Shown here: positions 18,741-31,106 of the stretch, in pieces | Layout: every line of letters starts with the position of its first letter | Numbering within the stretch: position 1 is the first letter of the stretch | Assembly: GCA_965240855.1 (NCBI GenBank) | Contig: CBDEMG010000038.1 | Span: 18,226-82,225, forward strand | DNA: 64,000 nt | Direction of reading: 5' to 3' | Source: an uncultured Bacteroidia bacterium | GTDB taxonomy: Bacteria > Bacteroidota > Bacteroidia > Bacteroidales > CAJPTX01 | Notes under the pieces: generated by a model | Seen by the model: the letters and a program-made list of their open reading frames with translations, nothing else | Told to the model about the DNA's origin: nothing | The model's database searches: none | Translations under genes and position numbers: made by a program

Positions 18741-18872
18741 GGCATACCCTGTCCCTACAAACCTGCAGCACGGGGTTCCCACCGCCGTGCTAGAAATACT
18801 CGCCCCGCAAGGGGGCTTAAATAGAACCGCTTGCCGCAAGGGTGTCGTCTGCTAAGACCCCGCCTAGTGCAG
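18741..18872. repeat. REP-like element; right copy of the direct repeat flanking the Type ISP cassette
   Basis: GGCATACCCTGTCCCTACAA, hairpin AGCACGG-ggttcccaccg-CCGTGCT, hairpin GCCCC-gcaa-GGGGC, then GTCTGCTAAGACC. Same order and orientation as 12081-12235. Confidence 0.7.
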
Positions 18873-26750: not shown

Positions 26751-27759
26751 CCCAAATCTCAGCTTTATATCCAGTGTATTCCCCTTCGGGGTGCAAATGT
26801 TTACTTACCAAACGCGTGGTACGGAGTAGTGGGTCGTATACCGAAACGAGCTCTGCCACAAAGCGATCGCCCTCGCGCACAAAATCGTAAAAAATATACT
26901 TGTTATTATAGCGCAAACCCGAGTGGAAGGTTATGCCCTGCGCTGTGCCTGCATACCCCGAACCAAGCCCTACTTGTTCTTTAGGAGGATCGCTAGGCAA
27001 CGGGGCTTTTTTCTGTGCAAACATGAAAAGATAGTATCGCTTAGCGCGTATCTCTTTCAGATAGAACTGGTTCGTAGGCACATCGTTCTTTACATACATA
27101 TCGCTCAAAAAGAAAGTACGTGCCCCCTGATGGATGCGCAACTGAGGGTTCTTCATCTGCTCAAAAAACTCGCGGTTCTCTTGTGCTTTAAGTACTGTTT
27201 CAGAAAAATCACCTTCTGCCTTCAACTTACGAAGTACGAAATACTCACGCGCTGGTTCTAGGTTGCGTCCTGTGCGAAAAAGAAGATCGCCATCCTCATT
27301 TTTGCGTAAAAAAAGGAAGTCGCTAGACCCCATATAGCTATCGTTTACAAGGCGGTGGAGATAATTGTAGGTAACAAAGCTAAGCTGTGTGAAACTATTC
27401 CTTCCCACGGCATACTCGCTCTCGCGTACGGTGGTGGCACTCGCTGCGTCAAGATCTGCTAACATCACGAGTTTGTTATTCTCAGCAAATTTCACGGTGA
27501 AAAGTACGCCTCCATACCCCAGCTGCCCACTAAAGAAGGGGATGAGCTCTGCGGGGTTGGAGAACAACAACGAATCAGTGCGAGGGAAATAGAGCAGCTG
27601 CCACCCATACGGCGCTCGTACGAGCTCCCGTTGTAAACTATCGATACTCGCCTTACTGCGCGCTGCAGGAGTATCACGAAAAACACTCTCTTGCTTTTGG
27701 CAGGCCAAGAAACTTAAAGCGCAGAACAATATTGATATAGAAAGCGGTAATCGCTGCAT
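26740..27759 (-). CDS. DUF4302-like lipoprotein
   Basis: MQRLPLSISILFCALSFLAC lipobox (ATG at 27759). APYGWQLLYFP...GGVLFTVKF is DUF4302-like. This family commonly accompanies SusCD-linked metallopeptidase-like lipoproteins. Confidence 0.55.
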   Translation of the reverse strand: MQRLPLSISILFCALSFLACQKQESVFRDTPAARSKASIDSLQRELVRAPYGWQLLYFPRTDSLLFSNPAELIPFFSGQLGYGGVLFTVKFAENNKLVMLADLDAASATTVRESEYAVGRNSFTQLSFVTYNYLHRLVNDSYMGSSDFLFLRKNEDGDLLFRTGRNLEPAREYFVLRKLKAEGDFSETVLKAQENREFFEQMKNPQLRIHQGARTFFLSDMYVKNDVPTNQFYLKEIRAKRYYLFMFAQKKAPLPSDPPKEQVGLGSGYAGTAQGITFHSGLRYNNKYIFYDFVREGDRFVAELVSVYDPLLRTTRLVSKHLHPEGEYTGYKAEIWDEK

Positions 27760-27760
27760 C

Positions 27761-28741
27761 TTAGTGATTCTTAAGGTATATATCCATTCGGCGCACACTC
27801 AGCAACTGCAAACGGAGCATATCTACATGCCACTCCTTGCGTAAGTATGCATCGACGAACGCTTTTTTCGTTGTGAGCTCCTTGTGCGCTTGCTCTGCCT
27901 CTTTTACATAGCGCTGATGCACCTCGGGGTTTGGGTCGGGGTAATCTGCATCCTCGGGGGTAGCGGCACGTACTGCAGCATCCTCGATCTCTTGTTGCGA
28001 ACTCACAAGTGTGGCACTAATGATCTCGGCAAAATCGTCTTCTGCAGAAAGAAAACCAAGCATTGTATACAAGCCACGCACATTAGCCCAACCATTCAAG
28101 CCGAGCTTCTCTTTGAGAGCTGCCGTATTGCCTAGAGGCGAGGCAATGAGCTCCGTAGATCCGCGAGTATACCGAGGCGCACTAATCTTTAGGAACGCAT
28201 CCCGATCATAAGGCAATAACTCGATAAGCCGCCTTGCCATTTGGTGGTAGATGCTACGTGCCAAACGATATACCTGCTCAGGCTTTTTGGGGTCGTATTC
28301 GTTCACGTTGTAGATACTCATCTCTGCACTACTGGTTGCTGGGTTATAGAGCAACTCTACGCCATTGTGGTCGGGGTTACCGCCGCCATAAAGCACAATG
28401 CGAAGCGGAGCACGTCCTTTCAAGAAATTCTCTAGTCCGAGGTCTGGATGCGTAAATAACTCTAACCCCAACTCCACCACCGCTTCTAAAACCTCTTGTA
28501 CCTTATCCACTTGTGGGGGATATACCAATGCACTCGTGCCCACCACATTCTTATCCCACCGATACTGTACATCCACGTTATAGGGTTTTACGAAGTTCGC
28601 GGCAATCCACGCATCCAATTCGGAGGGTTCTACTACGCGCCGATTAGCCTCAACCACACTCTCGGGCGACAACTTTTCTTTACACCCCGTACACAATAAT
28701 ACAGGGATAATAATACTCAACAATAAAATCTCTTTTCGCAT
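27761..28741 (-). CDS. SusCD-associated zinc-metallohydrolase-family lipoprotein with a degenerate active-site motif
   Basis: Lipobox VLLCTGC. LDAWIAANFVKPYNVDVQYRW and GFLSAEDDFAE fit the substrate-import-associated metallohydrolase family as I recall it. At the position where I expect HHEFAHIL, the sequence reads IYHQMARRL. Confidence 0.55.
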   Translation of the reverse strand: MRKEILLLSIIIPVLLCTGCKEKLSPESVVEANRRVVEPSELDAWIAANFVKPYNVDVQYRWDKNVVGTSALVYPPQVDKVQEVLEAVVELGLELFTHPDLGLENFLKGRAPLRIVLYGGGNPDHNGVELLYNPATSSAEMSIYNVNEYDPKKPEQVYRLARSIYHQMARRLIELLPYDRDAFLKISAPRYTRGSTELIASPLGNTAALKEKLGLNGWANVRGLYTMLGFLSAEDDFAEIISATLVSSQQEIEDAAVRAATPEDADYPDPNPEVHQRYVKEAEQAHKELTTKKAFVDAYLRKEWHVDMLRLQLLSVRRMDIYLKNH

Positions 28742-28781: not shown

Positions 28782-28850
28782 TTTTACCTCACCCGCTGTT
28801 GACGGTCTCGTGGGTTAGGGGGAAGCCCACGGCGTTGTGCCTCGACGGGG
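28782..28850. repeat. 69-bp direct repeat, copy A (orphan copy of the susD 3' end)
   Basis: 69/69 identical to 29569-29637, compared base by base. Confidence 0.95.
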
Positions 28851-28907
28851 TAACTGAGCGTTTCAAAAAAACAATTATTTATGCATAGATATCAAGGAAT
28901 ATTTACT

Positions 28908-28927
28908 GGACAGGGCATGCCCTGTCC
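28908..28927. repeat. REP palindrome GGACAGGGCATGCCCTGTCC with a CTACATAA tail
   Basis: Perfect 20-nt palindrome with the same tail as the copy at 11998. It is followed by TAATCAACAATTTATAGAGGCG (28944-28965), which also occurs at 11898-11918. Confidence 0.8.
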
Positions 28928-29059
28928 CTACATAAAAGCCATATAATCAACAATTTATAGAGGCGTATCAAGGAGAACTCATTGAGCCTACGGCTCGCTT
29001 TTATCAAAACAAAGGCTGTAATGTGCGTTTTAAGAAACGCGCCTACAAAAGACCTGCTT

Positions 29060-29566
29060 TTATTCGTAAAATTCATCTCGCTCCCAGTTTATAGGGTTAT
29101 CTAATATGTATTGTGCAACATTTATATACTCTTGCCGTGAGCGTAATATCCGATCATAAAATCGAGGTTGCCATACAAAAGTCAAATCTAGACGATGTGC
29201 TTCTCTACTTACAGCCGCTTTGTATGAACCTACGATTGCAGATAGCGTTTTACGACCTATATTCTGATATCTATTGGTTCCAACTGTAGGGACAGGGCAT
29301 GCCCTGTCCGGTAGTAACGTTAATAGTCCATGAATGTGATTGGGCATTATAACAAACTCCGCTAATTGTACATTGGAGAAATGCTCTGGTATTTGTTGCC
29401 ATAATTTCATAGCAAGTTCACCAATTTGCGAGAGAAGCATTTTACCATTCTCAATTTTACCGAAATAATGAAATCGTTCATGTGTGCAGAATGTAACATA
29501 ATAGATACCTTCTTTACTATAATCCCAGTTCTGTAGTCGATGTGACGTTCTATCTCTGTACGACAT
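29060..29566 (-). CDS. IS200-like Y1 (HUH) transposase, REP-associated tyrosine transposase (RAYT)-like
   Basis: 168 aa. HUH motif MPNHIHGLL, Tyr-helix IVGSYKAAVSRE and WQPRFYDRI. The ATG lies 4 nt after the susD stop. Confidence 0.8.
   Translation of the reverse strand: MSYRDRTSHRLQNWDYSKEGIYYVTFCTHERFHYFGKIENGKMLLSQIGELAMKLWQQIPEHFSNVQLAEFVIMPNHIHGLLTLLPDRACPVPTVGTNRYQNIGRKTLSAIVGSYKAAVSREAHRLDLTFVWQPRFYDRILRSRQEYINVAQYILDNPINWERDEFYE
29290..29309. repeat. REP palindrome GGACAGGGCATGCCCTGTCC inside the RAYT ORF
   Basis: Perfect 20-nt palindrome, translated in frame as PDRACPVP between the HUH and Tyr motifs. A CTACA tail is present on the minus strand. Confidence 0.85.
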
Positions 29567-29568
29567 TT

Positions 29569-29637
29569 TTTTACCTCACCCGCTGTTGACGGTCTCGTGG
29601 GTTAGGGGGAAGCCCACGGCGTTGTGCCTCGACGGGG
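29569..29637. repeat. 69-bp direct repeat, copy B (functional susD 3' end including the stop)
   Basis: Identical to 28782-28850. Encodes ...PVEAQRRGLPPNPRDRQQRVR*. Confidence 0.95.
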
Positions 29638-31106
29638 ATTTGGAGAACCTTCCTAAGATCGTCCTTTTCGAGAGGAAAGTAGTAGGGGCTCTTCGATGTG
29701 CGCTTTACTGCTATATGAAAGCGGCGAATATCGAACCAACGGAGGCCCTCCTGAAAGAATTCCTTGCGACGGAAGTCTAAAATTAGGCGCACCATAGCAA
29801 GCTGACCAAGCGAAAGACCATACCACGGCGAAACCTTATCGTAGTTTGCTATGCTGGTGGAAGTATATAGCGCTCGCTCCATAGTGGGCGCATAGCCAAA
29901 TTTCGCCTCACTGTATTCCACAAAATCGTCAATTGCCTTGTCGTATTCTTGCAACATAACGTAGGCTTCCATCCTATTGAGAAGTACCTCATCTGTGCTC
30001 AGCAATACGTTCGTTACATAGAGTCCACGAGGCTTTGAGCCGATACTCTCGGTGGTCGAGAGCTCATCAAACTTAGCCATGTACCTACCATTTGTAACAG
30101 GCGCAGAGGAGTTGGAAAAAGTGTAGAATTCTTCAAAACGAGTTGATACATCCCCCAAGTGCTCATGATACCGCTTGTTAAAAGCATCGTGCACTGTACC
30201 AAGTTTTGTACTCGTTGCTCCGTAACGCTCGATGGGTTGTTGCCGAGCAAGTCGCGATTCGGTTGTAGTGAGTAGTAGGTTAGCTTGCTCAGTTGGGGTG
30301 TTATAAATTTTGTGCAAATCTTCGTGGTGAAACTCTAGGTTGCGCATATATTGTACCCAAGGGCGCAGAAATGGCTGTGGTTTCACCCCTAACACAAAGT
30401 TGGCATACTCTACTACAGTGTGCCATTCGCCTTTGAAAAGATAAAAACGTGAGGCAAAGGCATAAGCTGCACGTTTGTTGAAATGAAACTTAGGCTGCTT
30501 GTAGTAGGCATCGTTTACGAGCGAAATTCCGCGTTTTAGATCGGCCTCAATCTTTTCATACACCTCGTTTACTGTACCTCGGCTGTAATCGACTAATGCA
30601 TGCTTCTCTGGCTTTGTAATATAGGGGATGCCCATGTTCACAGCAGAGCCTCCATAGGGTTCTGCCCAAATATTTACTAACATAAAATGGAGGTAGGCGC
30701 GGAGCAAAAAAGCCTCGCCATACAGCGCCTTTACACGCTCGGTCTTCTCATACTTCTGGAGTAGCTCTAGGGCTTTATTGGCTTGAGCAATACCGCGATA
30801 GCACTCGTTCCAGTAATTCAGTGGCGTATCGATATCCTCCTGTGCATAATCCTCCCAAAAGTACATAGCCTCGTTCAAGCTGTTTTGTACGCCATTGGGG
30901 CGCTCTGCTACGTTATCTGTACGAGGTTCAAGAAAGGGGATATAGCTTGCCTCAGGGTAGGCTCCCGTTAGAAGTTCTGCAATACGATCCTCACTATCGA
31001 TATCTATCGAAAGATCGGAATCGGGGTTTTTATCCAAAAACTTGTTGCAGCTACTCGCCAGTCCAAGAAACAGGAGTAGAGCTATAGGATAGACAAGGTA
31101 TCGCAT
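29571..31106 (-). CDS. SusD/RagB family nutrient-binding outer-membrane lipoprotein
   Basis: Lipobox GLASSCNKFLDKNPD, TPR-like helical content, 511 aa, immediately downstream of the SusC-like gene with overlapping stop and start. Confidence 0.85.
   Translation of the reverse strand: MRYLVYPIALLLFLGLASSCNKFLDKNPDSDLSIDIDSEDRIAELLTGAYPEASYIPFLEPRTDNVAERPNGVQNSLNEAMYFWEDYAQEDIDTPLNYWNECYRGIAQANKALELLQKYEKTERVKALYGEAFLLRAYLHFMLVNIWAEPYGGSAVNMGIPYITKPEKHALVDYSRGTVNEVYEKIEADLKRGISLVNDAYYKQPKFHFNKRAAYAFASRFYLFKGEWHTVVEYANFVLGVKPQPFLRPWVQYMRNLEFHHEDLHKIYNTPTEQANLLLTTTESRLARQQPIERYGATSTKLGTVHDAFNKRYHEHLGDVSTRFEEFYTFSNSSAPVTNGRYMAKFDELSTTESIGSKPRGLYVTNVLLSTDEVLLNRMEAYVMLQEYDKAIDDFVEYSEAKFGYAPTMERALYTSTSIANYDKVSPWYGLSLGQLAMVRLILDFRRKEFFQEGLRWFDIRRFHIAVKRTSKSPYYFPLEKDDLRKVLQIPVEAQRRGLPPNPRDRQQRVR

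Follow-up and report, generated by a model that had tools for sequence, protein, structure and literature searches.

Comparison of the window (the whole stretch of 64,000 nucleotides analysed here, from a gut-type Bacteroidales bacterium) with related loci confirms, at the level of assembled sequence, that the insertion of a RAYT cassette is real and recent, and that the target duplication going with it is unusually long; the event is a single one, seen in a metagenome-type assembly. In this strain only, a promoterless cassette separates susD from the following operon gene, and 69 bp of native target DNA were doubled when it arrived. While the element belongs to a known kind, its 69-bp footprint does not. 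The features of the locus are listed below.

27761..28741, minus strand: next operon gene, encoding a Peptidase_Mx1-family lipoprotein, with its native 40-nt upstream spacer kept
28782..28850, minus strand: copy A of the 69-mer, an orphan susD end, untranslated, that adjoins the native intergenic spacer
28851..29568, minus strand: inserted cassette of 718 bp, missing from all seven related loci examined
28851..28907, minus strand: conserved tail of about 60 nt following the downstream REP hairpin, common to other REP units of the genome
28908..28931, minus strand: second REP, with its GTAG on the minus strand, inverted relative to the copy within the ORF and 130 nt past the RAYT stop
29060..29566, minus strand: intact RAYT (TnpA_REP) gene of 168 aa, identified by a REP_Tyr_transpos match, a match to 4ER8 and a 24-sequence alignment
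29286..29309, plus strand: REP copy within the RAYT ORF, consisting of GTAG and a perfect palindrome of 20 nt and translated in frame as DRACPVP
29569..29637, minus strand: copy B of the 69-mer, running on from the susD body and comprising the last 21 susD codons, the stop and 2 nt
29571..31106, minus strand: intact susD-like gene of 511 aa (Pfam SusD-like_3, 1.1e-57; SusD_RagB)

Direct comparison within the window bears out the original prediction that 28782-28850 and 29569-29637 are identical: they match at 69 of 69 positions, in direct orientation, with their starts 787 bp apart, and bracket a segment of 718 bp (28851-29568). A match of 69/69 cannot be explained by chance. A search of the whole assembly, which had been suggested together with the prediction, finds the 69-mer in two copies only in the 2.11-Mb genome and the 718-bp segment, with its RAYT gene, in a single copy. 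In folding, the 69-mer does not surpass shuffled sequence (z = 0.1), hence it is not a repeat element in its own right; with two copies and this folding score, its interpretation as a structured or repeated element was rejected. All genes of the susD region are on the minus strand, and the C-terminal tail of SusD, EAQRRGL.PNPRDRQQR, is conserved in congeners. The RAYT ATG was placed correctly at 2 nt past the repeat (ORF 29060-29566 against copy B at 29569-29637), so that 4 nt separate it from the susD stop; the repeat itself extends 2 nt beyond this stop, not 4 nt as had been stated. Copy A, described earlier as lying about 40 nt before the next operon gene, ends exactly 40 nt from the ATG (28741) of the Peptidase_Mx1-family lipoprotein gene.

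The 90% cluster of this SusD has four other members, all from independent assemblies, and their contigs were compared with the window. The closest relative, a Logan contig of run SRR10276598, is conspecific, 98% identical, and colinear over 21.5 kb; its only structural difference from the window is that exactly the 787 bases are missing. It carries a single 69-mer, and its susD body, spacer, and next gene are base-for-base identical to the window across both junctions. Three contigs at 94–95% identity likewise show an empty site with one copy of the 69-mer, here with 2–3 substitutions, none of which is present in either window copy. In three congeneric species (approximately 70% identity) the site is empty, susD and the lipoprotein gene are about 105 nt apart, and a recognisable homologue of the 69-mer forms the end of susD. 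Judging from these alignments, the 69-mer is native susD sequence coding for the conserved tail, and both window copies carry the resident allele. Since the conspecific, the three near strains, and the three congeneric species are all empty, the insertion and the duplication are evidently the derived, strain-specific state. The empty site with a single 69-mer, proposed as a check when the insertion was predicted, is thus present in the conspecific contig with an identical 69-mer, and in six other relatives. Two metagenome scans, with the 69-mer core and with the RAYT 5' end as queries, gave no matches.

Two further observations concern the conspecific contig. It stops at a hairpin mosaic matching the one that borders a Type ISP restriction cassette at window position 18789, hence this strain has these repeat arrays at that site, though it lacks the RAYT cassette at susD. 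Substitutions relative to this 98% identical strain are also unevenly distributed: 13–19 per 500 nt in the two genes just downstream of the insertion (window 27000-28500), against 1–7 per 500 nt in susD, that is, 3–10 times higher downstream; the raised density may reflect a recombination tract.

The inserted gene was predicted to encode a RAYT, and this assignment holds. The protein matches NCBIfam REP_Tyr_transpos at 7.5e-17 (61.6 bits, under the curated cutoff of 80 bits) and, weakly, Pfam Y1_Tnp (0.0042), and its sole meaningful structural match is the E. coli TnpA_REP, 4ER8. The HUH motif is at H77/H79, and Y153 aligns with Y115 of 4ER8. Across the protein and 23 aligned homologues there is no or almost no variation at the HUH histidines, in the WQ motif, or at the YILDNP tyrosine. 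The signature of TnpA_REP subclass 2.4 consists of NH[IFV]H, WQ, and YIxNNP (Table 1 of PMC6006769), together with a REP within the gene, a published trait of this subclass (PMC6006769). The motifs observed here are PNHIHG, VWQPRF, and YILDNP, the last with D in place of one N of YIxNNP, and by these motifs the gene is assigned to TnpA_REP subclass 2.4. It is the only ORF of at least 60 aa in the 718 bp. Among 15 billion proteins no relatives at 90% identity or above were found outside this lineage; the exact protein occurs elsewhere on one 2481-bp JGI contig, its sole other record. The RAYTs of congeners are 30–37% identical and are associated with a different REP. As to a plasmid or phage vehicle, four plasmid matches and one phage match were obtained, all of them distant.

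The palindrome within the ORF, GGACAGGGCATGCCCTGTCC at 29290-29309, lies between the HUH motif and the C-terminal tyrosine motif (Y153). The genome contains at least 28 copies of this REP within three mismatches, most of them with GTAG/CTAC heads; several retain the stem by paired substitutions, and a reversed control pattern yields no genome matches within the same three mismatches. Seventeen of the 28 copies are at most 220 nt from a contig end, in mosaics of several different hairpin units; the hairpin arrays are fragmenting the assembly, and the true number of REPs is therefore higher than 28. This REP type was not found in 13 other species of the genus. An internal REP is family-wide, many homologues having a VETGHALSL-type insert at the same position, with the palindrome in another frame; in three other families of the order, the palindrome is mostly within the RAYT gene, with one further copy just outside it, in G014.

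At our locus, the inverted REP pair consists of the copy in the ORF and the downstream one, and the gene is not flanked by REPs on both sides: none was found between the susD stop and the RAYT ATG. The similarity of the cassette tail to other REP units ends about 5 nt short of the cassette boundary (82% over 82 nt for the unit on C83). The other boundary is an A/T run, with an A run 2 nt before the ATG and no REP nearby. The tail end looks enzyme-defined, as it coincides in sequence with the natural end of a REP-tail unit; the end 2 nt before the ATG, in the A run, does not.

A second Y1 transposase gene (152 aa; Pfam Y1_Tnp, 1.8e-21) lies elsewhere in the genome between perfect 43-nt direct repeats (L123:2274-2961, at the end of contig C20). 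These repeats hold a hairpin, GGAGGGT-N5-ACCCTCC, and such hairpins are dispersed and interspersed with GTAG REPs in BIME-like arrays. With this second Y1 gene and its own dispersed hairpin family, the genome has two Y1/hairpin systems.

Several known systems resemble the locus in part. In E. coli, e14 and phage 21 are integrase-driven elements that carry the 3' end of their target gene, icd. As with them, insertion here is at the 3' end of a gene that remains intact, with an orphan copy of the gene end on the far side; unlike them, there is no integrase, the 718-bp cassette carries the RAYT alone, and both copies are identical to the resident allele. A further such system is the REPtron, i.e., TnpA_REP with its cognate REPs (subclass 2.4 of Quentin et al., 2018, PMC6006769, corresponding to Bertels group 4). 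The locus shares with it the NHIH, WQ, and YIxxNP motifs, dispersed GTAG-headed palindromes, a REP inside the gene, a single gene per genome, and near-absence from plasmids and phages. It differs in that this strain alone gained the RAYT, the conspecific having an exactly matching empty site, while a REPtron gene sits at a stable, vertically inherited site; in the lack of a REP upstream of the RAYT; and in the 69-bp target duplication. According to the literature, evidence of tnpA_REP mobility is lacking, and the way in which REPs and RAYTs move is still considered open (PMC8266576).

IS200/IS605 elements resemble the cassette in their HUH/Y1 enzyme, which is related, in recognising hairpins, and in their small size, about 0.7 kb with a single gene. 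They move by single-strand "peel and paste" catalysed by the Y1 enzyme TnpA and leave no target duplication; they have directly oriented hairpins near both ends, many copies, and insert 3' of a fixed tetra- or pentanucleotide (PMC2817692, PMC5027513). The RAYT cassette, unlike them, is present in one copy, has a hairpin near one end only, and is flanked by a 69-bp duplication. The remark made at the outset that enzymes of the IS200/IS605 type are not known to produce such duplications agrees with the literature (PMC2817692). Long and variable duplications are otherwise known only for unrelated DDE elements, IS1634 and IS1549 of the IS1634 family, whose target repeats range from 8 to 514 bp, with no mechanism proposed (PMC2266710). 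The likeness is confined to the long direct repeat of target DNA: in contrast to the large DDE transposase and terminal inverted repeats of those elements, the enzyme of the cassette is unrelated, and its only inverted repeat is the REP pair.

The duplication does not appear to be a general footprint. Among 16 mid-contig REPs of this genome, the longest word shared between the flanks is 6–12 nt, with a null maximum of 13, i.e., no flanking duplication beyond chance, and a general REP footprint in the genome was rejected. A footprint common to the RAYT subclass was rejected as well: no convincing gene-end duplicate was found at other RAYT loci, either by exact-seed search for direct repeats (9 + 80 loci) or by blastn of the flanks (91 loci). 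Flanking repeats, where present at these loci, are mostly recognisable REP/BIME arrays.

Gene-end duplications of other kinds occur in the genome. One copy of a 156-nt direct repeat, 98% identical with three mismatches (L122:2117-2272 and L122:3429-3584, G000 contig C7), is the genuine 3' end of a C5 DNA methylase gene; the other is an orphan that follows an EcoRII gene split into separate ORFs for its N and C domains. The layout is that of the RAYT insertion, a gene behind a gene plus a duplication of the gene end. A perfect 42-bp duplicate of an intrinsic terminator brackets a gene for a 142-aa lipoprotein without family match (L121:2152-2193 and L121:2811-2852, G000 contig C79).

The reading we put foremost, and the simplest one, with a probability of roughly 0.45 that includes its well-supported descriptive part, is that the cassette was gained in this lineage in one step, with a strict target-site duplication arising from nicks on opposite strands and subsequent fill-in. 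The target strands would have been opened 69 nt apart, the minus strand after CCAAAT (between 29638 and 29637) and the plus strand after GTGTAAAA (between 28781 and 28782), both presumed cuts falling 3' of AAA(A/T). At a nick, HUH enzymes become covalently attached to the 5' side and allow attack by a 3'-OH. As it is the 5' side that they activate, the two 3'-OH ends of the cassette could join the 5' ends of the target; filling of two 69-nt 5' overhangs by host polymerase would then yield exactly the observed structure. We count in favour of such nicking the exact empty site in the conspecific and those in the three near strains and three congeneric species, the resident allele in both copies, the lack of a third 69-mer, and the intact catalytic residues, and also the presence of at least 28 GTAG REPs, the tail match to within about 5 nt of the boundary, the A/T-run junction, and the lack of a promoter motif. 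Against it, the Y1/HUH transposases of this superfamily work on single-stranded DNA and, as described, leave no duplications of this kind (PMC2817692); the REP units of the genome are without flanking duplication beyond chance, and none of the 91 other RAYT loci has a convincing target duplicate. Moreover, that both nicks follow AAA(A/T) was read post hoc from two sites; the true ends are undefined, since neither a donor site nor another copy of the cassette is known; and the dcm/EcoRII locus has a gene-end duplication without a RAYT, which favours a host recombination route. That RAYT-type HUH/Y1 enzymes insert gene cassettes into double-stranded DNA via opposite-strand nicks tens of bases apart, leaving long duplications of variable length, we consider doubtful; if true, it would be an undescribed mode of transposition and would account for the relocation of "immobile" tnpA_REP genes.

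Homology-anchored arrival is the most credible of the alternatives, although on balance we think it unlikely: the cassette, in the form of a circularised fragment or an excised 787-nt circle, would have carried a copy of the susD end when it came in. Entry would have been by a single crossover within the 69 bp, or by an illegitimate join at one side with homologous recombination at the other. The length of the duplication would then be the length of the homology, and not a transposase footprint. A stretch of 69 bp is sufficient for RecA-dependent recombination, and the RAYT ATG just 4 nt past the susD stop looks as if the arrangement had pre-existed. The split EcoRII gene behind the C5-methylase gene, with its 156-nt, 98% identical duplication of the methylase 3' end, and the 42-bp terminator duplication around the lipoprotein gene both lack a RAYT and speak for the same route; in the former, the two methylase ends run into different tails, the signature of an incoming allele. 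At susD, however, there is no difference between the two copies, or between them and the nearest empty allele. A donor with the cassette behind susD is also required, and none of the seven related loci has one, nor is there a record of the RAYT at 90% identity or above outside this lineage; a conspecific donor, sharing both flanks, would have led to an ordinary double crossover without duplication. Recombination with a paralogous susD locus, one of the mechanisms offered originally, has no third copy of the 69-mer in the genome to draw on. Selection for a restored SusD C-terminus, another of them, accounts for the tolerance of the allele, not for how it arose. Tandem duplication followed by insertion was rejected, as the AAAT boundary microhomology would entail a unit of 70 nt with a T preceding copy A, and this is not observed.

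An artefact of assembly or population structure seems distinctly improbable. An empty chromosome plus a 787-nt circle (the cassette and one 69-mer), or two strains that differ in their junctions, might have been threaded into one path; the assembly is indeed a fragmented, metagenome-type one of 86 contigs, and a graph loop at a 69-nt repeat would have the same appearance. Yet both novel junctions must occur in reads, whatever the path, a molecule joining the cassette end to the susD interior is still needed, and a circle with the native 69-mer could derive only from the assembled arrangement. The assembly also traverses other perfect repeats, of 79–117 nt, so that the assembler probably worked with words of more than 69; the word size inferred from contig-end overlaps was not consistent. 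Finally, the separate 2481-bp JGI contig with the exact RAYT protein exceeds the 856 bases bounded by the repeats. We give even less credence to a scheme in which sister lineages independently acquired the cassette, without duplication, at sites 69 bp apart, and an unequal crossover inside the 718-bp cassette came afterwards. Each single step would be conventional, and both sites are 3' of AAA(A/T), as a target-specific Y1 element would require; but three events and the meeting of two alleles in one cell are needed, one of these alleles truncates the conserved SusD tail, and neither single allele is seen among the related loci examined. Hardly tenable, in turn, is an old arrangement from which the empty sites arose by secondary precise deletion. 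Perfect direct repeats do promote such deletion; however, all seven related loci are empty, from 98% down to approximately 70% identity, the repeats are without any difference, and the REP type is absent from 13 congeneric species.

Whatever its origin, the insertion probably has consequences for the operon. The stop-to-ATG gap of 4 nt and the lack of a Bacteroidetes-type -7 promoter motif between susD and the RAYT ATG make it most likely that the RAYT is transcribed with the TonB-receptor/SusC/SusD operon; the same 4-nt distance suggests that it may be translationally coupled to susD. Two stable hairpins and 787 extra bases now lie between susD and six downstream genes, and the REP hairpins may dampen the expression of these genes. 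No canonical terminator was found on the coding strand. As to a promoter in the cassette for the downstream genes, no TAnnTTTG motif was found in its tail, and sigma-70-type matches are at the level of shuffled sequence. For its neighbours the insertion would be nearly scarless, because susD keeps its conserved last 21 codons and the next gene its own spacer. The perfect repeats should permit precise loss of the cassette by recombination.

RAYTs are regarded as domesticated single-copy genes. Two things are new here: a tnpA_REP gene gained at the level of a strain, for which the exact empty site is available, and the 69-bp target duplication at a RAYT cassette. With the before/after pair, empty in a conspecific and filled with a perfect duplication here, both junctions are defined to single-base precision, and the cut sites they imply can be tested. 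An enzyme-made footprint would point to an insertion chemistry new to HUH enzymes; a recombinational one would make the locus a record of how a small gene enters a Bacteroidales operon with neither neighbour damaged. Either way, a transposase has probably come under the control of a nutrient-uptake operon, and REP activity may thereby be coupled to substrate availability.
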